40,000 nt of DNA. Origin: Nitrosopumilus sp. GTDB taxonomy: Archaea; Thermoproteota; Nitrososphaeria; Nitrososphaerales; Nitrosopumilaceae. Below the pieces are notes generated by a model. The model was not told the DNA's origin. It made no database searches and saw nothing but the letters and a program-made list of their open reading frames with translations. The translations under genes were made by a program, and so were the position numbers. Location: NCBI RefSeq assembly GCF_025699125.1, contig NZ_JAILWC010000004.1, positions 160,735-200,734 of the forward strand, in the 5' to 3' direction. This document shows positions 25,916 to 40,000 of the stretch, in pieces. Within the stretch, counting starts at the first letter, position 1, and the number at the start of each line of letters is the position of its first letter.

Positions 25916-25936
25916 TTTATCGACAAACAGTAAAAA
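25916..25936. repeat. left copy of 21-nt direct repeat (target-site duplication) TTTATCGACAAACAGTAAAAA
   Basis: It is identical to 37314-37334 and immediately abuts the outer end of the left TIR. Confidence 0.8.
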
Positions 25937-25986
25937 CAGTATCCCCCCGAAATACGCGTAAATTCCTGACGGTTGTCGTAATGCTT
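25937..25986 (+). repeat. left terminal inverted repeat
   Basis: The sequence is cagtatccccccgaaatacgcgtaaattcctgacggttgtcgtaatgctt. Compared with the reverse complement of 37261-37311, the outer 12 nt and inner 14 nt are identical, with about 40 of 51 aligned positions matching overall. Confidence 0.8.
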
Positions 25987-26013: not shown

Positions 26014-26835
26014 TTGTCTGAATCACAAAAGCCTAAAGAATTCAAGTATGTATTTCATGGCAGAGTTTTACCAGAAAGAGCAGATGTCGAAATCACAGGA
26101 GGTCCAATTATCGGAATACAAACTAGCACTGGGTATGATCTTAGAATATCTTTTGAAATTCGAAAATCTTTGATTTCAATACATGTAACATCTTTTGGAG
26201 AAATTACTGATTTTGCAGAAGTTAGAAATTTCTTACTGGATTTTGTTCGATTACATACAGATTCGTACGGATACATTAAGGGATATGCATATGATGCAGA
26301 AATCACATCTGTAAGTGGCGAGAACAATCAACCTTACATAATTTTTGGAGTAGGGATAAAGGAATTGACCGATGAAGAATCCAAACGCGCGTTTCAAAAA
26401 ATAGATAAAATTATCTTATTAGCAATACAAGACAAATATCGATTCATTTATGGCACATTAGCAAATCTTCGACTATCTATCAAATATCCTTCTGATACAG
26501 GAACCTTTTGTTATAGAGCCGTTGAAAGCATTAGACAATATTTTGGAGTTAAAGGCGATTCCAGAGATGCAAGAAAAAAAGCTTGGGAAAAATTAAATGC
26601 AGAGCTTAATGTTGATAAAAGTTGGACAGCTAGAATAGCTGATTTTGCATTAGATCCGAGACATGGAAAACAAAAATCAATCACACATGATGAACGGGTA
26701 GAGATAATGCAAAAAACTTGGGTGATAGTGGATAGGTTTTTGATTTATGCTCAAAATAATGAACAAACTTTAGACACTGCCTCGTTTCCATTACTAAAAT
26801 ACAATGACACAAAAGGGACAAAAGAATCACTATAA
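26014..26835 (+). CDS. casposon ORF, unknown function (273 aa)
   Basis: TTG start 28 bp inside the left TIR, with no in-frame ATG for about 230 codons. It overlaps the cas1 start by 32 nt. I recognise no motif. Confidence 0.55.
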   Translation: MSESQKPKEFKYVFHGRVLPERADVEITGGPIIGIQTSTGYDLRISFEIRKSLISIHVTSFGEITDFAEVRNFLLDFVRLHTDSYGYIKGYAYDAEITSVSGENNQPYIIFGVGIKELTDEESKRAFQKIDKIILLAIQDKYRFIYGTLANLRLSIKYPSDTGTFCYRAVESIRQYFGVKGDSRDARKKAWEKLNAELNVDKSWTARIADFALDPRHGKQKSITHDERVEIMQKTWVIVDRFLIYAQNNEQTLDTASFPLLKYNDTKGTKESL

Positions 26836-27805
26836 CGTAAAACTACTACGAGGCTACGGAGTATCCATATCTCTCAAAGACTCTAAAATTATTCTAAAAA
26901 ATGGAAGGCATGTTATCACAGGAGAACAAGAATCCGAAGAATGGTTTGTCAACAACATGCCATATGAAAAAATAATACTTTCTGGAAAAGGATATGTTAG
27001 TACGGAAGCATTATCATTATTATCTCAAAAGAACAGAAACATAATCCTAATTGACACATACGGTAAACCAATAATCTTCTGCAACTCTATGATGGATTCT
27101 CTAACGGCTACAAAATATCGAATGGCACAGTACGATACGTTCAGAGATCCTGAGAAATGTGAGTATCTGCGTAAGCAGATTATACAAAGTAAAAAAGAAT
27201 CTCAACTAAAACTGTTAAAACTAATTGGTAGTGATGTAACTTCTCTACCTGAAAAAGAACATCTTGCAAGTAAAGTCTATTTCAAAGAATTTGCCAAAGT
27301 CATTCCTGAAAGATATGGATTTAATTCAAGAAATCAATCGTTTATCCGAACATCAAAAAACAATGCAACTGATATCATCAATGCGTTACTAAACTATGGT
27401 TATTCTGTTTTGGCAGGGGAAATCTCAAAGTTTGTCTGCGGGTTTGGATTAGATCCTTATTTTGGATTTATGCACAAATCTCATACGGGATTTCAACCGT
27501 TGGTTTATGATTTGATAGAACCATTTCGATGGCTAGTTGATTATACTGTATTCAAAATTGCAAACCATCCAAATTATCGTTATAGAATCAAACTCAAGGA
27601 ATTTGTTCATACAAGGGAGGGGAATGTCGTGATGGATTCATCTTTGATCAAGAGGTTTTTGGAGATGTTAGAAAGACAGTTCCAACAGGAAAGAAAGTAT
27701 GATTTTAGGCATGGAAAGAAGACTGAATCGGGTTTGAAATCAGTTCAAGAAATTACTGTTGCAAAGATTATGATTCAAAAATTATCTGATTTTTGTAGCC
27801 AATAA
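26804..27805 (+). CDS. cas1: Cas1-family integrase (casposase)
   Basis: 333 aa with an N-terminal beta-rich domain (LLRGYGVSISLKDSKIILKNG). The catalytic alpha-domain motifs are ATDIINALLNYGYSVLAGEI and GFMHKSHTGFQPLVYDLIEPFRWLVD, carrying the conserved His and acidic residues. Confidence 0.88.
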   Translation: MTQKGQKNHYNVKLLRGYGVSISLKDSKIILKNGRHVITGEQESEEWFVNNMPYEKIILSGKGYVSTEALSLLSQKNRNIILIDTYGKPIIFCNSMMDSLTATKYRMAQYDTFRDPEKCEYLRKQIIQSKKESQLKLLKLIGSDVTSLPEKEHLASKVYFKEFAKVIPERYGFNSRNQSFIRTSKNNATDIINALLNYGYSVLAGEISKFVCGFGLDPYFGFMHKSHTGFQPLVYDLIEPFRWLVDYTVFKIANHPNYRYRIKLKEFVHTREGNVVMDSSLIKRFLEMLERQFQQERKYDFRHGKKTESGLKSVQEITVAKIMIQKLSDFCSQ

Positions 27806-27809
27806 TTTT

Positions 27810-28265
27810 TTATTTTTCTAAAACTTCTTCAACTGTAGAGCACTTACATTTAGAAACAAAACTATCTTCTTGAATAGCTTTTTTTAGATTTCCATCTGCA
27901 GTTACAAGGATTGCATTAGATTGTAATGTTACACCAACAAATTCAGTGTCACATTTTTTAACTCCTTCAAAATTATTTGAAATACCCTCTATTATACTCG
28001 TTTTCAATGGATCACTCATCACTCCTAAAAATCTAGGAATTATATGATTGTCTAATATCTCGTTATTGTATTTCTGTTCCACTTTTTTAGGTAATGCAAA
28101 AAACTTTTGTTGAATTTTCAAATTCATAAACTGTTTGTCTTTGTTTGAGAAAAATCCATAAAGAAATATTTTTTCTGTATCTGCATTTTTAGATTTATTG
28201 TTTGATGCTTTTTTTCCATGAATTGCATTTAAAACAACATTTTCATCAATTACATAATCAGTCAT
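27810..28265 (-). CDS. PIN-like domain protein (putative nuclease partner of the ATPase)
   Basis: The N-terminal MTDYVIDENVVLNA resembles the PIN first strand plus Asp. The C-terminal CDTEFVGVTLQSNAILVTADGNLKKAI resembles the PIN D..ia.A....a.LvT.D motif. The ATG at 28265 overlaps the ATPase stop by 8 nt (ATGACTGA). The track start is TTG at 28298, and a further in-frame ATG lies at 28280. Confidence 0.5.
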   Translation of the reverse strand: MTDYVIDENVVLNAIHGKKASNNKSKNADTEKIFLYGFFSNKDKQFMNLKIQQKFFALPKKVEQKYNNEILDNHIIPRFLGVMSDPLKTSIIEGISNNFEGVKKCDTEFVGVTLQSNAILVTADGNLKKAIQEDSFVSKCKCSTVEEVLEK

Positions 28266-29520
28266 TGGGTTCACCCACATATTTAGAAAACATTTCAAAA
28301 TCAGTTTCCCAAAATTCTTTTAATCCATTTTTGATTTGTCCATGTTCATTAATAGGTAAAGTCTCTATTTTTGAAACCCCTGTTTTTTCATCTTGATAAA
28401 ATGAATTTACTGTGACTCTAGTGGGGTTAATTTGCTGTTTGCTTGCAATTTTTGCTAAAAATGGATAGAGCATATGCTCACTATGAGTAGTAAAAATAAG
28501 CTGTTTATTGTCTTTGTTTGAAATTTCTATCATTAATTCTACAAGTTTTGATTGAGCTTTGGGATGCAAATGGATTTCAGGCTCATCTATGGCAATTACA
28601 GAACCTGAAGGACTTCCTACCAGTATTGTAAGTAACAAGATTACTTGATTAGGACCAGTTCCTTCGTTTGCAATAGCATTAGCAAATCCATTCTTTACAA
28701 ATTCCAAGGTCACTCCTTGCAGTTCAGATGAAAGAAGGTCTACATTTCTAGTACGAATCGTTTTACCCGTTAATTGATGGATAAATGAACTGATTTTACC
28801 TAGCAAATCGGTATCTTTGCTTAATTTGCTTAAAGTTACATCCATTAAAGATTCTGGACTACTTGAAAGTAAATCATCAGGTGTTCGTACCAATTTAACA
28901 CCATATTTTGTTGCAGAACGAAAAAATGGAATATAGAAAAACTCATCTAACAATTGTTCGGTAAATTCCCCATTTGCAAATATATTATTGATTCTAGTAC
29001 TTGTTTCACTCCCCTCCTTAGATGCTATTCGTGGGTGTAGTCCATTTATGGAACACTCTAACGTGGACTTTTCCTCTTGTCCTCTTCTAGAATTAATACG
29101 TGTTTTCTGATTTCGATAACTAAATTCAAAATCGTAGTGATCTACATTTACACCTAGATACACATCAGAAATACCCTTTTCCCCTTCTGTAACATAATAC
29201 CCGAAATCAGCTTTTGTTTTTCCTTCATAATCAATTCCGGTGGCGATTGTTTTTATCCCTTCTACCCCAATTCGTATTTTTCGTGTAAGGTCACCAAATG
29301 AGACAACATCTTTAAAATTTCCATAATCATAAGAGTCTGTTGAATATGTTAGATTATTGGTTCCTTGTTGTTTCAATGATGTTTTTAAAATTAAAAGAGC
29401 TTGAAGAATAGATGATTTTCCACTGCTGTTAGATCCTATGAGAATATTGAATTGACTTAATGGTATTTCCCAATTAACATGTGATTTAAAATTCTCTAGA
29501 CGTATTTTTTCAAGATACAC
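28258..29520 (-). CDS. ABC/SMC-like AAA_15/AAA_21-family ATPase
   Basis: 420 aa, GTG start. The N-terminus YLEKIRLENFKSHVNWEIPLSQFNILIGSNSSGKSSILQAL carries Walker A. The C-terminus VIAIDEPEIHLHPKAQSKLVELM...LIFTTHSEHML carries Walker B, D-loop and H-loop. Confidence 0.8.
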   Translation of the reverse strand: MYLEKIRLENFKSHVNWEIPLSQFNILIGSNSSGKSSILQALLILKTSLKQQGTNNLTYSTDSYDYGNFKDVVSFGDLTRKIRIGVEGIKTIATGIDYEGKTKADFGYYVTEGEKGISDVYLGVNVDHYDFEFSYRNQKTRINSRRGQEEKSTLECSINGLHPRIASKEGSETSTRINNIFANGEFTEQLLDEFFYIPFFRSATKYGVKLVRTPDDLLSSSPESLMDVTLSKLSKDTDLLGKISSFIHQLTGKTIRTRNVDLLSSELQGVTLEFVKNGFANAIANEGTGPNQVILLLTILVGSPSGSVIAIDEPEIHLHPKAQSKLVELMIEISNKDNKQLIFTTHSEHMLYPFLAKIASKQQINPTRVTVNSFYQDEKTGVSKIETLPINEHGQIKNGLKEFWETDFEMFSKYVGEPND

Positions 29521-29546: not shown

Positions 29547-31445
29547 TTAAAGATCACTTTCAGGTTCATATACAAATTCATCATATCCTGACCAAATAAT
29601 CTCATTCTTTGAGATAATATCTCCTATAATATCAATAGGAATAGGCACAGAATCACACCATTTCTTGTCTTTTAATGATTCCAAATCGGATAACCAATGT
29701 CGCTTTCTATCTGAGTTTAGTCCAATTTTCTTGTCATACGTTTCAATCTTTCCAATATCATCAATTTTGTCATATACAATTCCTCCTTTGATATGGGTGG
29801 TTCTTGTAGTTGCAACAGTAATGTAGAGATTTCCTTCCTCATCAATCTTTGTTGCCAAATGTTCAATCTCTATCTTTCTTTCAGTGTCATATCCTATTCC
29901 ACGATTCTTCCATTTGCCATTGATATGATAGAATCCGTTAGAAAGAAAATACGTGTCAAAGCCATACTTGTCAAGTTTCATCCCCCCTAGTTTTTTACTA
30001 TCTAGATTTGGAATCTTTTTTCTGCATGCAATAGAGTCAGTTGCAAATGCCACTACATCTCTTTCAATGTTATTGTCTCTGACAAACTTGTACAGTTGTG
30101 CCCTTGCAAAACCTGTGATGTAAGATGCAATAATTGGATTAAACAAATTGCCCATAACACCATTTGTTCGCTGAGCCATCTTACCATAGACGGAATTTAG
30201 AATGATCTTGATTGCTCTCTCTAGCGAATTTCCTTCTTTTTGTAATTCCATTCTTTTCTCATATTGGGAATTTACAAAGTCTCTAAATGGATATGTACAG
30301 TTTTCATTTGCAATGAATTGCTGTGATTCTATTATTTTGTATTTTATTCTAGAGTCACCAATTACTGCCTTTAGTTCCTCTAGTGTGACAAATGTCTCAA
30401 ACTCTCCTGATGGGTAGATGATTCTATTATTTTTTGTTCTAAATGGAAATGGCGAAATTTTAACAGAATCAGAAACATATGCTCTGATGTGAAAGAATCC
30501 TAATGATGCTTTGGGGTTTATTCTAGTGGAATGAATCCATTTGCCATCAGTAATGTCTGGAAGAAATGTTAACGCATATGGATACGCTGAATTGATATCA
30601 TAGATGTAGCACTCTCCGATGAATCCGCGTTGAATTAGCTCAAATCGCCCTCCATAGAACGATTTCCACGCCAAATCCTGTATTTCATAGGGAATATCAG
30701 TAAACAATGCGATTTCCACGTCATTGAATATCAATACTTTTTCTGCCAGATATCCCGAACTTATCCAGTTTGCCGTGTAAAACTGGTATGCGTTAAAAAA
30801 AGTATCTAGCCAGTAATCTGCCAGTTCTTGAGTTAAAACACAATCCAAAAGACAATAGTCTCGGATCTTTTGCTTGTTTCTCATAAAGTATCGCAGTGAA
30901 AACTTTTTTCTCTTTTCTTTTGTTTCAAGATACTCTTGATCAAGAGTCTTTTTGATATGCTCAGAATATGCAACCTCGAGTCGTTTGTTATCATAGTATT
31001 GTGCAATATCATAGCATGAAATGGAATGCTTGTCTTTTCTAATTGTTAGTTGCTTTTTTGGAATGTATCTTATTTGATATCCGTTGTATTGAAAATCTAA
31101 TCTTTTACTAGTCTTGTAGGTTTTAAGAATGTCTTTGGGCAATAATTTTAAAATGCATTCAGCATCATATTGTAGATTGTAAAAAAATATCCAATACCCC
31201 TCATGCTTTAGAAGAAGTTTTGCAATGTTATCAAATGTTATGTCTGGATATTCTAGTTTAACACCATTTGACAACATGAAAAGAAAAATGTTTCCTTTAA
31301 CAGTTTCAGTGTCAGCCCCCAAAGTTTTTCTTCGTTGTGAGATGTTTGGATTTCTGTTCTGCTTTCTAGTTTTGATAAATGTCAGGTCTTTGGCATTTGA
31401 TTTCGGAGTGTAAACTTGCAATGTCATGGGCTTGGATTCCTCCAT
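29547..31445 (-). CDS. polB: family B DNA polymerase, protein-primed type
   Basis: 632 aa. The motifs are ExoI GADTET, ExoII FFYNLQYDAE, ExoIII YCLLDCVL, Pol A YIYDINSAYPYAL, Pol B KIILNSVYGKMAQ and Pol C VVAFATDSIA. Confidence 0.9.
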   Translation of the reverse strand: MEESKPMTLQVYTPKSNAKDLTFIKTRKQNRNPNISQRRKTLGADTETVKGNIFLFMLSNGVKLEYPDITFDNIAKLLLKHEGYWIFFYNLQYDAECILKLLPKDILKTYKTSKRLDFQYNGYQIRYIPKKQLTIRKDKHSISCYDIAQYYDNKRLEVAYSEHIKKTLDQEYLETKEKRKKFSLRYFMRNKQKIRDYCLLDCVLTQELADYWLDTFFNAYQFYTANWISSGYLAEKVLIFNDVEIALFTDIPYEIQDLAWKSFYGGRFELIQRGFIGECYIYDINSAYPYALTFLPDITDGKWIHSTRINPKASLGFFHIRAYVSDSVKISPFPFRTKNNRIIYPSGEFETFVTLEELKAVIGDSRIKYKIIESQQFIANENCTYPFRDFVNSQYEKRMELQKEGNSLERAIKIILNSVYGKMAQRTNGVMGNLFNPIIASYITGFARAQLYKFVRDNNIERDVVAFATDSIACRKKIPNLDSKKLGGMKLDKYGFDTYFLSNGFYHINGKWKNRGIGYDTERKIEIEHLATKIDEEGNLYITVATTRTTHIKGGIVYDKIDDIGKIETYDKKIGLNSDRKRHWLSDLESLKDKKWCDSVPIPIDIIGDIISKNEIIWSGYDEFVYEPESDL

Positions 31446-33181: not shown

Positions 33182-33445
33182 CAGTAATTGGAGGGTATTT
33201 TTGAAAACCTGTTCATTTTGATACAGTAAAATTTACGAAAACAAGTTTACAGAAACCCCAGTAAAATTATGAATAAAATCATGAAAACAAGGAAAAATTT
33301 ACTGTTTTATGCCTAGTAAAATTCAGTAAAATCATAATTCTATGTATGAAAAATAACACCTTATCGGAGTAAAGTTTACTGATTATTTAGTAAAGTTTTC
33401 AAATGTAAAGTGGTGGACAAAACTATTCAATCAGGAAAGTAAAAT
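33182..33445. repeat. iteron array: at least 10 copies of (C/T/G/A)AGTAAA(A/G)T in both orientations
   Basis: Full 9-mer copies lie at 33224, 33259, 33314, 33324, 33367, 33388 and 33437. Shorter or variant copies lie at 33182 (cagtaat), 33297 (inverted, cagtaaat) and 33375 (inverted, cagtaaa). A related hairpin tcagtaa-N5-ttactga lies at 32805-32823. The array ends at the start codon of the TIR-like gene. Confidence 0.65.
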
Positions 33446-34790
33446 GGACAATGAATTACCATACAAAATTTTGAAAATAATGCGAGATCTTTACAATATG
33501 GACCCTATGAGTTACATGGGTATGGATTACTTTGAACCAGAACTTAAACTTCCTGAAGAAGTAATTCAAGGGGCGTTAATCTATCTGAAAGAAAAAGACT
33601 GGATAAGATCTTTCAAAGATGTTCATGGTGAATGGGTTCAACGAATCAACGCTAATGGAATGGATGAATTACTAAACTATGAAAAAGAACATGCTGATGA
33701 TAATGAGCCATTAGAATTTGATGTGTCTCATGAAGATCATACTGGTAAAATCAAGGTCTTTATCAGCCACAAATTTGTAAAATCAGACCAAAAATTAGCA
33801 AAAGCCTTAGAACACAATCTTAATGAAAATAACATCTATGGTTACTTGGCAGAACGAAGAAAAGAATATGATATTGTATTTGGAGAGAAAATAAAAAATG
33901 AAATTAAATCATCAGACTATCTAGTAGCCATTATTACTAAAAACTCTCATTTTGCACCATCAGTACATCAAGAAATAGGATACGCTATGGGAATTGGAGT
34001 TCCTGTCAGAGTAATGGCTGAAGAAAAAGAAGCAAAAGGAGTATTAGTAGAAGGCAAAGACATTGAAATTTTTACAAGATATGATTTTGAAAAATATCTA
34101 GGAAATATAATAAAAAATATTCAAAAAAATGGAATTAGAAAAAAACTATCTCAAAAAGAAAAAGATGATCTAATTACACATGTGTATCGTCCTTGTTTTA
34201 ACCAATTAATGAATATATATCCAAAACGAGATTTCATAACAGAAATTCCAGATAATGCGTGGAACAAACTTGAACCATTTTGGCAATTAAAATGTGAGCC
34301 TGAAATATCAAAACTTTTTCAGGAATACGAAAAAGAGAGAAATACTTGGCATCTAATGTGGATAGACTTTCAAAATAAATGCCAATCCAAACGAAAAGAA
34401 TTAGGAGAAATGCTTAGACCTATTTTTGAAAAATATCATTTGTTCAATTTGGATGGAACTCTTTCTTTTGGAGGATATGATCTTAATCCCGAAGAATGGA
34501 TTCATAACTGTCAGGATGTTCTGTTTAACCCTCAAATTCAAAATCGATTGGAGTTGTACGTAACATTAAAAGACTTTGCACTAAAGAAATGGGGCGAAAG
34601 ATATTCAAAATCATATGACAAATGGCATCAAAACAATCCGTTGATTTTTACTGAAATCTTAAAAATGATTCCCTATTTAATAGATAAACTAGATGCAGAA
34701 TTCCCATATAATAAAATCAATGATCAGAGAAACATTCTAAAAGAAAAAATCGAGATATTGACACTTGCTCTAGAAGAAAAATTGAGATGA
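33444..34790 (+). CDS. wHTH + TIR-like (DUF1863 / nucleoside 2-deoxyribosyltransferase-like fold) domain protein with unknown C-terminal helical domain
   Basis: 448 aa. Residues ~103-215 read KVFISHKFVKSDQKLAKALEHNLNENNIYGYLAERR...SSDYLVAIITKNSHFAPSVHQEIGYAMGIGVPV, matching the TIR-like pattern (FISH start, S.wv.qEig.A with a conserved Glu). The N-terminal ~80 aa looks like a wHTH. Confidence 0.6.
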   Translation: MDNELPYKILKIMRDLYNMDPMSYMGMDYFEPELKLPEEVIQGALIYLKEKDWIRSFKDVHGEWVQRINANGMDELLNYEKEHADDNEPLEFDVSHEDHTGKIKVFISHKFVKSDQKLAKALEHNLNENNIYGYLAERRKEYDIVFGEKIKNEIKSSDYLVAIITKNSHFAPSVHQEIGYAMGIGVPVRVMAEEKEAKGVLVEGKDIEIFTRYDFEKYLGNIIKNIQKNGIRKKLSQKEKDDLITHVYRPCFNQLMNIYPKRDFITEIPDNAWNKLEPFWQLKCEPEISKLFQEYEKERNTWHLMWIDFQNKCQSKRKELGEMLRPIFEKYHLFNLDGTLSFGGYDLNPEEWIHNCQDVLFNPQIQNRLELYVTLKDFALKKWGERYSKSYDKWHQNNPLIFTEILKMIPYLIDKLDAEFPYNKINDQRNILKEKIEILTLALEEKLR

Positions 34791-34791
34791 T

Positions 34792-35709
34792 ATGATGAAA
34801 ATTCCCAAAATTCCTTCGTCAGTTGAGAATTGGTCTATAGAAAAAATAGATGAGTTGATTCAATATGTGGGGATTGAATCAGATACTTTTGATTTTAAAA
34901 AAGAACCAAATCAATTAGAAGAACATATCTGTGCAATGGCAAATACCAAGGGAGGACATCTAGTATTGGGGATTGAACAAATTGATAGTGAAGATGGAAA
35001 GCAAATTGTAAAATTTGAAAAACGTGGGTTTAAACATGGTTTTGAAGATAACATTAAAAATCAAATCAGTAACAGTGTTCTTCTGATAGAACCAATACCT
35101 GATGTGGATATTATTCCAGTTCATGAAAAAGATAACAAAAAATTCTATATCGTAATCCAAATTCAAAATAATTTTTCAAATAAACCTTATTTTGTACGTT
35201 CAACTGACCAGTGTTTTGTAAGAATTCATAACTCAAAAATACGTGCAAATCGTTCAATTATTTTTAATTTATTTGGAACATCAATCGAACAGAGGAAAAA
35301 TCTTGAAAGTTTACGTTCTGCAAGTAGTATGGTGGAAGAATCTTTTAGACATGTTATTAGCAGAATTTATTTTGTTTCGCCTGAGTCAAACATGAAAATT
35401 TCTCTTCTAGAATTATCGTATTTACGAACTACTGCTGTTTCTTGTGATGCATTTCTAAAAGAAAGAGACTTGTGGGGCGAACATACTGGACAAGGCAGTT
35501 ACACTCATGGAATTAATTCTTTATTGCATGATTTAGAATTTATGAACACATACATCAAATCATACAACGATTCACATGATACTGATGAAAGACGTGATCT
35601 GAAAGGACAACTGTCGTCATACAGTTTGGGTAGCACGTTTGAGACACAAACATTAGAAATGTTTGATAAAATAATCTGTTCCGTAGATGTATTTCTTTCA
35701 AAAATATGA
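34792..35709 (+). CDS. Schlafen/AlbA_2 (divergent AAA_4) domain protein
   Basis: 305 aa. ESDTFDFKKEPNQLEEHICAMANTKGGHLVLGIEQIDSEDGKQIV matches the AlbA_2 signature (E..eFK....l...icAfaNt.GG.l.lGv). The start lies 1 nt after the upstream stop. Confidence 0.6.
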   Translation: MMKIPKIPSSVENWSIEKIDELIQYVGIESDTFDFKKEPNQLEEHICAMANTKGGHLVLGIEQIDSEDGKQIVKFEKRGFKHGFEDNIKNQISNSVLLIEPIPDVDIIPVHEKDNKKFYIVIQIQNNFSNKPYFVRSTDQCFVRIHNSKIRANRSIIFNLFGTSIEQRKNLESLRSASSMVEESFRHVISRIYFVSPESNMKISLLELSYLRTTAVSCDAFLKERDLWGEHTGQGSYTHGINSLLHDLEFMNTYIKSYNDSHDTDERRDLKGQLSSYSLGSTFETQTLEMFDKIICSVDVFLSKI

Positions 35710-35744
35710 TCATACCTTATTAGTATGAAAATAATTTGTTGGAT

Positions 35745-37262
35745 ATGAGTGATTTTAACTCAAATCGGATTTTTACAATTTTATTTTCACTAATATTGTC
35801 ATTATTAATTGCAAGTCAAATCACTGCAATAGTTTCGGTATATGAAAATATATTAAAACTAATTATTGATGACTATTCAGAAGAGTTATTAAAATCACTC
35901 ATTTTTAATCTTGGAAAAAATATCTTTTTTACATTAATTTTTGCCCTGTTGATTTTTGTTGGAATTAAAAAATTTCTAAAATTCAAACAAAAAGAATTCG
36001 GAACTGTGGATGAATTCAAACAAATCTTTCGTGTTATGATTACCAAGAAGCGTCTTTTCTTCTCATTTCTTCTAGCATCTATTATGCTTTGTTTAGGAAT
36101 TGCATCTTCTTATTATGCGACTGATATTTTGTCCACATTAATTAATGAAGGCGGACTTTCAAACCCCATTTCGAATGAACAGAAAAAGTTGTTAACTGAT
36201 TTAGCATTAGAACTTAGTTTTGGAGTCATTTTCATAATATGGGGCACATCTACAATTATTCGGATTTTTCAAACTGCATCTTCTTCTCTTCACGATAGCA
36301 AGATATCTGCAATAACTACAACCATTACTACAAAATACAGTGAGAAAAAAATCTCAAAACCATCTAGAATAAAAAATCAATTAATTCAAAATCCGATATG
36401 GAAAATTTTTCTATATGTCATAATTGTGCCGTGTATTTTTTTACTTTTAATTTTTTACAGTTCAGATATTCTTAAATCAATTAATTCCAATTTCGAAACA
36501 CCCATACTGCCTTTTGGACCATATGTTATCTATTTGATGATGATTTTCATTTCGATAGTTAATAACAGATATGTAAGCACATATAAAAAAACCAATGTTT
36601 CAAAACATTTTGAAATTTTAGGTTCAAAATACATAATTAAAGAAAATCGTATATTGGAAAAAATTTATCTTGTGACATTTATTCTCATGATTATTTCAGT
36701 AATCATCTTTGTAGCATACATTGTGATAAATCCTCAAAGCGATGACATAAATGCAGAACAATTGGATCCTATTGCTGTATTCTTTTTTTCATTATTCTTT
36801 GGGTTTATGCTCATGTTTACAATCACATCTGTAAAAATAAAAGTGGATCGTGATAAAGATGATTTTTTACTATGGATATCTGGGGGGTTTTTCGAAGAAG
36901 GATTAAAAAATAAAGATAAAATTAAAGAGTATTTGGATTATGGTTTACAATCATACAATACTTTTTTTAAAATACATCACAAGCAAAAAATTATTGATAT
37001 TCAACATATCATTATTGAGATTGTTTCTAAAAAAGAATCAGAAAAAATACAAATTATTCAAAAACTAATAGCGTCATTTAAATCCAATAACAATTATGAT
37101 GCACTGAATGAAATATGCAAACTAATGGGCGTGAAATCACATAATATCATTACATCTAACAAATTTGTTTTAAAAATAAAAGATTGGGGAACTTTCATCA
37201 TCTCGGTTTTGATATTAACATTAACAATTATGTGGTATTGGAAAGAAGGATTATTTTCTTAA
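35745..37262 (+). CDS. polytopic membrane protein with soluble C-terminal region (hypothetical)
   Basis: About 505 aa with at least 8 hydrophobic helices. The track start is TTG at 35736 and an ATG lies at 35745. The stop codon (37260-37262) overlaps the first 2 nt of the right TIR. Confidence 0.6.
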   Translation: MSDFNSNRIFTILFSLILSLLIASQITAIVSVYENILKLIIDDYSEELLKSLIFNLGKNIFFTLIFALLIFVGIKKFLKFKQKEFGTVDEFKQIFRVMITKKRLFFSFLLASIMLCLGIASSYYATDILSTLINEGGLSNPISNEQKKLLTDLALELSFGVIFIIWGTSTIIRIFQTASSSLHDSKISAITTTITTKYSEKKISKPSRIKNQLIQNPIWKIFLYVIIVPCIFLLLIFYSSDILKSINSNFETPILPFGPYVIYLMMIFISIVNNRYVSTYKKTNVSKHFEILGSKYIIKENRILEKIYLVTFILMIISVIIFVAYIVINPQSDDINAEQLDPIAVFFFSLFFGFMLMFTITSVKIKVDRDKDDFLLWISGGFFEEGLKNKDKIKEYLDYGLQSYNTFFKIHHKQKIIDIQHIIIEIVSKKESEKIQIIQKLIASFKSNNNYDALNEICKLMGVKSHNIITSNKFVLKIKDWGTFIISVLILTLTIMWYWKEGLFS

Positions 37263-37311
37263 GCATTACGACAAAGCGTCATAAAATCACGAGTAAAGTG
37301 GGGGGATACTG
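37261..37311 (-). repeat. right terminal inverted repeat
   Basis: The sequence is aagcattacgacaaagcgtcataaaatcacgagtaaagtgggggggatactg, and its reverse complement aligns with 25937-25986. Confidence 0.8.
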
Positions 37312-37313
37312 TT

Positions 37314-37334
37314 TTTATCGACAAACAGTAAAAA
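37314..37334. repeat. right copy of 21-nt direct repeat (target-site duplication)
   Basis: It is identical to 25916-25936. The 5 T at 37312-37316 could belong to either the TIR or the TSD. Confidence 0.8.
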
Positions 37335-37425
37335 GGGAACGCCCCCTCTTTGTGAGTAAAATTGTGCTAGGAACTAGGTAAATTTTGAGAGTCTGTTTAG
37401 TTTAAAATTATCTTGAGTAAATTAA

Positions 37426-39213: not shown

Positions 39214-40000
39214 ATGGTGCCTATAATTCGGGAAATGTTTGAAAACAAAGAATCCTTTGTTAATCTACTAAATCTGGCATTGAGATTAAACATCTCAAAG
39301 AGGATATCCTATGACAAAATAATTGAAACTATGATCAATGACAATATGGAAAAAGAATTTTGCCAAAAATTAATGAATGCAGAAAGTTTTGAAGGAATTG
39401 TAAAACGATATTCCATTTGGAAAGCAACTGATTTTTTTTCAAAAGAAGAATTATTATTAATTGCAGACATATTGAGTGAAAAAGAGAAAAAATGGAAATA
39501 TGATTCTAAAAACATTGATTCATTAAGTTTACAAATTACACAAAATACAAAACCTGAAGATTTTGCTGAAATTTTACCAAAACTGATTTTAGAGCACAAA
39601 ATAGATCCATTGTCTCAAAAAGGAAAATGGGTTGTAGGTGCGTTGGGAATTACAAAATCTGTAACAACTAGAAAACAAACTGATGCTGATGATTTGATAA
39701 GTCTTTTGTTAAAATACTTGAATATTAATTCTGTTGAAAAGTTTATTGAAAAATCTATTTTCCTACCAAAGAATAACAATTATGATAGAACTGAGCCTAT
39801 AACATATCTAAAATATCTACAACTAATTCTAACATATGGTGAAGATGACGATATCCTTTCAATTTTGAATCAACTAATTGATGAATCCATAATCAATATA
39901 CATAATGACGAAGTGTTTTGGAATTACACCATAACCCCATGCGGGATATTTGAAGATTCAGTGTATGATCCTGTTGAAAGAATGACTGAAATTATTTTAA
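39214..40000 (+). CDS. hypothetical protein, 3'-truncated by window end
   Basis: Hand translation from ATG 39214 (MVPIIREMFENKESFVNLLNLALRLN...) stays open for 262 codons to the window edge, with an in-frame stop upstream at 39175. It is absent from the track because it has no stop, and it supersedes the antisense ORF 39309-39599. Confidence 0.6.
   Translation, partial: MVPIIREMFENKESFVNLLNLALRLNISKRISYDKIIETMINDNMEKEFCQKLMNAESFEGIVKRYSIWKATDFFSKEELLLIADILSEKEKKWKYDSKNIDSLSLQITQNTKPEDFAEILPKLILEHKIDPLSQKGKWVVGALGITKSVTTRKQTDADDLISLLLKYLNINSVEKFIEKSIFLPKNNNYDRTEPITYLKYLQLILTYGEDDDILSILNQLIDESIINIHNDEVFWNYTITPCGIFEDSVYDPVERMTEIIL

Follow-up and report, generated by a model that had tools for sequence, protein, structure and literature searches.

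The subject of this analysis is a pair of overlapping genes from a Nitrosopumilus sp. genome that encode an ABC ATPase and a stand-alone PIN-domain protein. They lie in a 40,000-nucleotide stretch of contig NZ_JAILWC010000004.1 (hereafter the window; G+C content about 32%), between the cas1 and polB genes of a casposon. A first-pass annotation made from the letters alone had described a 420-amino-acid (aa) ATPase whose stop codon falls inside the start region of an open reading frame (ORF) of about 151 aa with PIN-like ends, and we confirmed the coordinates, the motifs and the overlap on the minus strand. The two genes and their key residues are located as follows.

28258..29520, minus strand: ABC ATPase, 420 aa, GTG start; AAA_15/AAA_21 family, NsnB/HEC-03-type, with a C-terminal helical tail
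27810..28265, minus strand: stand-alone PIN-domain protein, 151 aa, ATG at 28265 and stop at 27810; putative Mg-dependent nuclease effector
28258..28265, minus strand: start/stop overlap ATGACTGA, 8 nt, translational coupling
29413..29436, minus strand: ATPase Walker A, G29-S-N-S-S-G-K-S36
28582..28599, minus strand: ATPase Walker B, V-I-A-I-D312-E313 (reverse complement GTAATTGCCATAGATGAG)
28245-28247, minus strand: PIN acidic residue D7
28173-28175, minus strand: PIN acidic residue E31
27948-27950, minus strand: PIN acidic residue D106
27894-27896, minus strand: PIN acidic residue D124, to which T122 is added

The gene pair and its products

The overlap ATGACTGA is the reverse complement of positions 28258-28265 and places the PIN ATG 5 nt ahead of the ATPase TGA. 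Translation gives the peptides IRLENFKS, GSNSSGKSS (Walker A), IAIDEPEIHLHP (Walker B) and TTHSEHML (H-loop) in the ATPase, and YVIDENVVLNA and DTEFVGVTLQSNAILVTADGNL in the small ORF. A longer, 162-aa version of the small ORF with a TTG start was considered and rejected; the 151-aa ATG start is correct because all of the homologues (20/20) begin at M-[TS]-x-Y-V-I-D-E-N. The polB, ATPase and PIN genes are co-stranded, with a 26-nt gap between the polB stop and the ATPase start followed by the 8-nt overlap, and co-transcription of the three is probable. The cas1 gene is convergent with the PIN gene, and their stop codons are 4 nt apart.

Sequence comparison argues firmly that this is not a chance pair of ORFs, as both proteins have homologues (21 for the PIN protein at E ≤ 1e-3 and 1454 for the ATPase at E ≤ 1e-10) and both genes are under purifying selection. 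Against the closest relative (locus L022, in which the ATPase is 79% and the PIN protein 87% identical), the ratio of nonsynonymous to synonymous substitution rates is about 0.1 for both genes (ATPase, 0.125; PIN protein, 0.10).

The assignment of the larger protein to the AAA_15/21 type was upheld by Pfam (AAA_15, 4.7e-35; AAA_21, 1.5e-24) and by its SMC/Rad50/PtuA-like fold. In an alignment of 24 homologues, Walker A residues G29, G34, K35 and S36 are invariant, as are R201, G287xG289, E313-P-E315 and T345-H346-S347-E348. The catalytic glutamate of Walker B (E313) is intact in the window protein, and residue 312 is D or E across the family. R201 stands where ABC ATPases normally have the Q-loop glutamine, and the signature is of the GxG type (G287, G289). 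An AlphaFold2 model (predicted local distance difference test score, pLDDT, 85.7) has an SMC/Rad50-type head without a coiled coil, a large beta-rich insertion at about residues 82-167 (Insert-1), and a conserved, DUF3696-like C-terminal strand-strand-helix tail (369-415, with the helix at 401-415). Its nearest solved structures in Foldseek searches are retron-IA/PtuA defence ATPases, Rad50 and SMC heads (E about 1e-13). Insert-1 is the least conserved segment, at 0.35 compared with 0.74 for the catalytic core. Together, the motifs and the modelled fold predict a hydrolysis-competent SMC/Rad50-type ABC head of the AAA_15/OLD-ABC class.

Among PADLOC models, the ATPase is closest to NsnB of the Menshen system (1.1e-45, spanning model positions 2-333 of 345). 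AriA comes second (4.9e-39; its model, PDLC02979, has 373 positions and is of a generic AAA_15 type), ahead of the HEC-03 ATPase (1.8e-35) and PDC-M55A (2.4e-30). HEC-03 (Hma-embedded candidate 03) pairs an ABC ATPase with a VapC-like PIN protein (Payne et al., bioRxiv 10.1101/2024.01.29.577857). PADLOC, suggested by the first-pass annotation as a check on its defence reading, thus recognised one half of the pair, whereas the PIN protein has no match in it at E ≤ 0.1. Pfam DUF3696, the tail of NsnB and HEC-03 ATPases, was found in 20 of the 24 ATPase family members (best 5.7e-8). The earlier expectation that the ATPase would fall outside known housekeeping families held, because no NCBIfam model comes near its cut-off and every score is far below it. 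Searches of PHROGs returned several families of unknown function (best 2.3e-29).

The smaller protein gave no match in Pfam, PADLOC or NCBIfam, and profile searches of the PDB started from two family alignments returned noise only; several individual homologues have weak Pfam PIN, PIN_2 or PIN_3 matches. Since there is no direct sequence assignment, the PIN call is based on the AlphaFold2 model, on Foldseek and on the positions of the motifs. The family is rare, with 21 relatives among 5.8 billion clusters, 20 at E ≤ 1e-3 among 1.84 billion representatives, and a single match in 185,579 species-representative genomes. In PHROGs, there is one weak partial match to a family of unknown function (phrog_28095, 8.9e-5).

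The AlphaFold2 model of the PIN protein, built on the homologue alignment, has a pLDDT of 90.5 and a predicted template modelling score of 0.87. Strands and helices alternate in a beta-alpha-beta arrangement, with strands at residues 3-6, 44-47, 119-122 and 141-144 and helices at 8-16 and 29-40 among its elements. All of the top 30 Foldseek matches in the PDB (30/30) are PIN or PIN-like (PIN/NYN-type), at probabilities of 0.7-1.0, TM scores of about 0.5 and modest E values (4e-3 to 1e-1). They include AF0591 (1o4w), TTHA0540 (3ix7), PAE2754, PAE0151, Nob1, VapC21, VapC4, FitB and Exo1, as well as an archaeal helicase PIN domain (5f4h) and the protein-only RNase P enzymes HARP and PRORP. Model and matches agree with the three-layer alpha/beta/alpha fold and parallel beta-sheet of the PIN superfamily, and the PIN-like nature proposed in the first-pass annotation is borne out.

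The acidic residues occupy the canonical PIN positions: D7 follows strand 1 directly, E31 and D106 lie at the beginnings of helix 2 and of the helix that follows strand 3, respectively, and T122-x-D124 follows strand 4. Across 21 homologues D7, E31, D106 and T122 are invariant and D124 is at least 90% conserved; in a broader alignment of 33 sequences, reaching down to 26% identity, D7 and D106 remain invariant and E8, T122 and D124 are at least 90% conserved. From the model and these residues, the small protein is predicted to be a PIN-domain protein that retains its metal-binding acidic residues, and it is putatively an active nuclease. The core of the family also keeps three cysteines, C105, C140 and C142 (in KKCD... 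and ...SKCxC...), of which C105 adjoins D106. They could form a metal site or a redox site, and they are gone in the most distant members.

Recurrence of the pair and the casposon that carries it

We collected related loci (designated here by L numbers) from the homologues of both proteins; they are few, and the family is rare. The conserved archaeal neighbourhood that the first-pass annotation proposed to look for was found. The pair recurs in about 17 archaeal loci, and tblastn and hmmsearch place the ATPase gene directly 5′ of the PIN gene in every locus with enough upstream sequence, down to 34% (ATPase) and 30% (PIN) identity with the window. The junction is an overlap of 4 nt (ATGA) or 8 nt (ATGNNTRR) in 16/17 loci. 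The exception is the decayed L002 (8724-10460 of a 186-kb archaeal contig), in which the ATPase is split into 317 aa and 93 aa and the PIN protein is truncated or frameshifted past residue 123; such decay is the turnover expected of a dispensable accessory module. Pairwise distances of the two proteins correlate (r=0.59), and in neighbour-joining trees, which are crude and were used just for co-divergence and clustering, the casposon-borne copies form one subclade. Relatives of the pair sit on contigs with 30-37% G+C content, and the named sources are Nitrososphaerales or Nitrosopumilaceae.

The pair is present in at least five casposons. The order polB, ATPase, PIN and then convergent cas1 is found in the window, L022 and L009, and L010 has polB, ATPase and PIN before its sequence ends inside the PIN gene. 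In L013/L014 the order is polB, a 69-aa ORF, ATPase, PIN and an HNH gene, adjoining the gene for EF-2, where family-1 casposons classically insert. In L001 the order is ATPase, PIN and a 424-aa ORF followed by convergent cas1, with type II/IIG restriction-modification systems upstream. Elsewhere the pair lies between two tyrosine integrases near an AIPR gene (L012), near an integrase and a MazE gene (L016), beside a Shedu SduA_C gene (L017), or in uncharacterised surroundings (L015, L003). Because several different casposons carry the same polB-ATPase-PIN slot, the pair is not a one-off pickup but a lineage-conserved accessory module of casposons. The earlier label of casposon cargo is to be qualified in this sense.

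Two other histories were considered. The uneven similarity between the window and L022 (Cas1 just 54% identical, ATPase 79%, PIN 87%) raised the prospect of a recent module swap between casposons, but blastn aligns the two contiguously at about 78% identity from the 3′ end of polB into cas1, which gives no clear sign of such a swap. Viral origin or carriage is unsupported: IMG/VR holds no relatives of the pair, and fold matches in BFVD are generic PIN-like or DUF1308 proteins.

The element around the pair is a complete family-1 casposon of 11.4 kb. All of the family's hallmarks are present, namely a Cas1 casposase, a protein-primed PolB, terminal inverted repeats and a target-site duplication of about 15 bp. 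The first-pass annotation had placed the pair between cas1 and polB on a casposon, and both points are confirmed by the following features.

26804..27805, plus strand: casposase Cas1 (Pfam Cas_Cas1, 2.4e-43)
29547..31445, minus strand: protein-primed PolB (pPolB), 632 aa; 48.5% identity over 610 aa to the L013 PolB carrying Pfam DNA_pol_B_2 (PF03175)
25931..25974, no strand: left terminal inverted repeat, 44 nt, 77% complementary to 37274-37317
37274..37317, no strand: right terminal inverted repeat, 44 nt, partner of 25931-25974
25916..25930 (left) and 37314-37328 (right), no strand: target-site duplication TTTATCGACAAACAG, 15 bp, exact; the first 4 nt of the right copy overlap the end of the terminal repeat
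33444-37262, plus strand, first gene of the block: TIR-domain protein, 448 aa (Pfam TIR_2, 2e-7; PADLOC ThsB, 1.2e-5)
33444-37262, plus strand, second gene: Schlafen/AlbA_2 protein, 305 aa, 2 nt past the stop of the TIR-domain gene (SLFN_AlbA_2, 2.4e-14)
33444-37262, plus strand, third gene: 508-aa protein with no family hit
26014-26835, plus strand: 273-aa ORF overlapping the cas1 start by 32 nt; no Pfam, PADLOC or NCBIfam hit

Two copies of TTTATCGACAAACAG are observed in the window, compared with 0.18 expected by chance. The terminal repeat sequence, TAAAAA...CCCCCC...GACGG, resembles those of the casposons NitNF5-C1 and NitNF5-C2 (Krupovic et al. 2019). Further defence-like cargo of the same casposon forms one co-oriented block (33444-37262), with the TIR-domain and Schlafen genes at its head. 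As in the window, the published family-1 casposon NitNF5-C1 has an uncharacterised gene overlapping cas1 at the position of the 273-aa ORF.

A second casposon-type terminal repeat (TAAAAAGGGAACGCCCCCTCTTTGTGAGTAAAATTGTG...) lies at 37329-37370, directly after the right copy of the target-site duplication, and is similar to the published NitNF5-C1 terminal repeat. No inverted partner for it lies inside the window; either an earlier insertion at this site left it behind as a solo remnant, or it marks the left end of a tandem casposon that continues beyond position 40000.

Two further loci differ from this pattern. The casposon-like element at L013 7712-12660 (and L014) has an HNH-domain gene (307 aa, Pfam HNH 4.3e-5) in the place of the window's cas1, and a tblastn search of the 10 kb to each side detected no Cas1. 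In bacterial DNA of about 42% G+C content, L018/L019 (6001-7742) encode an ATPase relative of 28% identity beside recG and rbfA; after it comes a 172-aa ORF that matches PIN_9 weakly (0.026). The first acidic position of that ORF is N (VINEW), which suggests that it may be a stand-alone inactivated PIN like that of Menshen NsnC.

A candidate conflict module and the alternatives

On balance, analogy with characterised systems makes it probable that the two genes form a single translationally coupled two-component conflict module, for defence or exclusion, of the class that joins an ABC ATPase to a nuclease effector. Its nearest relatives would be bacterial HEC-03 and the NsnB-NsnC core of Menshen, and its most likely role is that of an ATPase-gated PIN nuclease in defence or in conflict between elements. 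The neighbourhoods of the pair are typical of defence islands or mobile elements (restriction-modification, AIPR, Shedu, integrases), and the casposon in the window also carries the TIR/ThsB-like and Schlafen genes. In E. coli, HEC-03 lowers coliphage plaquing by orders of magnitude, requires both genes and is toxic upon induction (bioRxiv 10.1101/2024.01.29.577857).

The mechanism that we propose is drawn by analogy from the solved complexes of Septu, PARIS and Gabija, the AlphaFold3 models of Menshen and the genetics of HEC-03. ATPase oligomers would hold the PIN protein through their C-terminal tails and keep the nuclease silent. A trigger from an invading virus or a competing element, sensed by the variable Insert-1 and/or through a change in the ATP cycle, would release or activate the PIN protein, which would then cut RNA (tRNA or mRNA, as VapC does) or possibly invader DNA. 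The invader or the infected cell would be stopped, by abortive infection or exclusion. Placement in the polB operon of the casposon would mean that host and casposon are protected as a unit, which would favour retention of the element.

Several observations weigh against this interpretation. DUF3696 is not found in the window ATPase itself at E ≤ 1. The HEC-03 PIN model of PADLOC does not match the window PIN protein at E ≤ 0.1 (nor its L012 or L016 homologues at E ≤ 0.01), and hhalign between the window PIN family and a 28-sequence HEC-03 PIN alignment gives non-significant probabilities of 7.5% and 5.9%, albeit with the catalytic motifs colinear. E31 is kept in the core PIN family alone and is not conserved in the most distant members of the 33-sequence alignment. 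Finally, the fixed site beside polB in several casposons could instead reflect a role in the element's own replication.

Such a role would make the pair an accessory of casposon replication or transposition, in which a Rad50/SMC-like ATPase and a PIN/FEN-like nuclease trim DNA ends or flaps while the element replicates by protein priming, excises or integrates. The pair follows polB on the same strand after 26 nt, the polB-cas1 slot is shared by the window, L022 and L009, and polB is also upstream in L010 and L013/L014. Moreover, the ATPase fold matches Rad50 and SMC heads, and the PIN superfamily includes 5′-exonucleases and flap endonucleases, with PAE2754 and Exo1 among the matches. Yet the pair occurs with no nearby Cas1 or PolB in L012 (between tyrosine integrases), L003, L015, L016 and L017, and the searched gene tables of family-1 casposons show ATPase+PIN adjacency on integrative and conjugative elements (ICEs) alone. 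The ATPase has neither coiled coil nor zinc hook, and its nearest sequence families belong to defence rather than repair. We regard a replication role as distinctly improbable. A host housekeeping pair for DNA repair, consisting of a RecF/Rad50-type ATPase and a nuclease that adjoin the casposon genes by chance, is effectively refuted: the weak N-terminal matches to RecF, Rad50 and SMC models stand against the position of the pair within an element bounded by terminal repeats and a target-site duplication, a patchy, island-associated distribution, NCBIfam scores that are all far beneath the cut-offs, and the rarity of the family (21 PIN homologues in 5.8 billion clusters, one hit in 185,579 species-representative genomes).

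An addiction or stabilisation module would use the same two proteins differently, with the PIN protein as a VapC-like toxin and the ATPase as its protein neutraliser, so that loss of the casposon frees the stabler nuclease and kills the cell. HEC-03 is toxic on induction (bioRxiv 10.1101/2024.01.29.577857). The nearest PIN folds are VapC-type and archaeal PINs, the neutraliser-first order and the gene overlap are those of toxin-antitoxin operons, and the pair, fixed in one sublineage of casposons, invariably accompanies mobile elements or islands. The upstream partner, however, is a 420-aa ATPase and not a small labile antitoxin or a DNA-binding VapB; its conserved hydrolysis motifs would be needless in a passive antitoxin, and its variable Insert-1 resembles a sensor surface. 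A chromosomally integrated casposon, furthermore, leaves little for post-segregational killing to act on. Addiction is, in our judgement, unlikely. Many abortive-infection systems behave as toxin-antitoxin pairs, and addiction and defence are compatible.

The conflict-module interpretation can be extended to a two-part evolutionary scenario, which we offer tentatively and consider rather doubtful as a whole. Modules of a DUF3696-type ABC ATPase and an active stand-alone PIN protein, such as the archaeal family and HEC-03, would be the core from which Menshen evolved: PIN would have been the first effector held by the ATPase tails and, on later losing its active site, would have turned into the NsnC docking domain as further nuclease domains and the NsnA sensor joined the system. 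In one thaumarchaeal lineage of family-1 casposons, the module would separately have become fixed in the polB operon as the element's exclusion system against viruses or rival casposons. If true, casposons, the presumed source of CRISPR adaptation, would here have their first conserved module of immune type.

Comparison with known systems

Toxin-antitoxin VapBC systems share with the pair a small PIN protein with an acidic tetrad, encoded by the second gene of an overlapping pair, and VapC21, VapC4 and FitB are among its structural matches; the upstream gene encodes a 420-aa ABC ATPase instead of a DNA-binding VapB antitoxin of about 80 aa. Septu (PtuAB), retron-associated PtuAB, PARIS (AriAB), Gabija and OLD are alike in using an AAA_15-type ABC ATPase oligomer to gate a small nuclease. 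Structurally, the window ATPase is nearest to the PtuA and retron-IA ATPases, and the Septu, PARIS, Gabija and OLD models of PADLOC are secondary hits. Their effectors are HNH or TOPRIM and their ATPase tails and inserts differ, whereas the partner in the window is a PIN protein, and Pfam finds no TOPRIM or HNH domain in the window ATPase.

On the Nitrosocaldus ICEs NCAV2-E1 and NitIsl-E1, a supplement lists adjacent, co-oriented genes for an arCOG03241 'ATPase AAA family' protein (402 aa) and an arCOG03706 PIN protein (154 aa), namely NCAV_1012/1013 and CRG89_RS04295/04300, with arCOG03706 filed in category V, defence (Krupovic et al. 2019). This is the only ATPase+PIN adjacency in the searched gene tables of published thaumarchaeal family-1 casposons. 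Judged by these descriptions, it may represent a further archaeal branch of this architecture; the genes are separated by an 18-nt gap with no overlap, and they reside on ICEs, not casposons. The same study lists OLD nucleases in NitNF5-C1 and NitDev-C1, and HEPN and Cas4 genes are also reported on thaumarchaeal casposons (Krupovic et al. 2019).

Menshen consists of NsnA (ParB-DUF262), NsnB (an ABC ATPase with a DUF3696 tail) and NsnC (an inactive PIN fused to a nuclease domain), and is reported from bacteria alone; in AlphaFold3 models, two NsnB molecules clamp the PIN-like domain of NsnC with their DUF3696 tails (Li et al. NAR 2025, PMC12065111). No PADLOC model scores the window ATPase higher than NsnB does, and the unusual arginine at the Q-loop position (R201) and GxG signature (G287xG289) of NsnB recur in the window ATPase family. 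In 20 of its 24 members that family likewise has the DUF3696 tail, and in both cases the partner gene begins with a PIN-fold domain. The system is reportedly credited to Millman 2022 as well. The differences are in the partner and the sensor. The window partner is a single 151-aa PIN protein without a C-terminal BECR, Toprim or PLD effector domain, and it keeps the D-E-D-D residues that all 35 NsnC inactive-PIN families lack (PMC12065111). Its ATPase has a canonical Walker B (D/E-E), where that of S. silvestris NsnB has 'EN'. For NsnA, no DUF262 match turned up in any casposon ORF, nor among the Pfam annotations precomputed for about a dozen related loci. We rejected strict membership in Menshen on three counts: NsnA is missing, the partner is not built like NsnC, and the PIN domain looks active.

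HEC-03 is closer in architecture. Both have two co-oriented genes, the first for an ATPase of about 420-460 aa with a DUF3696-type tail (recognised in most of the window family) and the second, overlapping it, for a stand-alone PIN protein with retained acidic residues and a length of about 150-165 aa, and the ATPases are homologous over their full length (P0138: 26% identity, 97% coverage, E 2.6e-24). The bacterial DUF3696 ATPases P0117 (L020) and P0138 (L021) are each followed by an overlapping ORF of 162 or 165 aa with PIN motifs (VVDTNV...FDxDD...NATDSD), and PADLOC identifies these two loci as bona fide HEC-03 (ATPase model 1e-181 and 1e-187; PIN model 4e-17 and 1e-47). The PADLOC-DB v2 models are PDLC04147 and PDLC04148; the preprint uses HEC-03A for the ATPase and HEC-03B for the PIN protein, and the PADLOC names are reversed. 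Against the ATPase model, the window protein scores 121 bits (1.8e-35, in two partial stretches), below its NsnB and AriA scores, whereas true members reach 603-622 bits over the full length. The PIN motifs also diverge, with YVIDENV...CDxEFVGV...LVTxD in the window compared with VVDTNVPIVANG...FDxSDRKF...LNATDSDW in HEC-03, and the window family is found in low-G+C Nitrososphaeria on casposons, whereas HEC-03 hosts are bacteria. By sequence, the window pair has the HEC-03 architecture and an ATPase of the clade common to HEC-03, NsnB and PDC-M55, with a PIN protein from a separate sequence family.

The first-pass annotation had suggested an uncharacterised variant of the ATPase-plus-nuclease logic. 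The divergent archaeal family on casposons is indeed new relative to the literature consulted, but the pairing of ATPase and PIN was already known from HEC-03. By analogy, the pair is a credible defence module of known type, with no new mechanism; since the design is known and experimentally validated in bacteria, it would represent a divergent archaeal branch and not a new type of system. What is new is a family in Nitrososphaeria whose PIN partner is missed by current PADLOC models, the ATPase alone receiving generic hits, together with the conserved position that it holds beside polB and cas1 in one family-1 casposon lineage, alongside TIR and Schlafen genes. Given that the defence repertoires of ammonia-oxidising archaea are poorly known, the family bears on mobile elements as main vehicles of defence genes and on the connection between casposons and CRISPR. 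As an NsnA-less relative of the Menshen core with a predicted-active PIN, a kind of relative that is likewise new, it is a natural comparator for the Menshen mechanism and, as an archaeal ATPase+PIN branch, it would carry the experimentally validated bacterial design of HEC-03 over the domain boundary.

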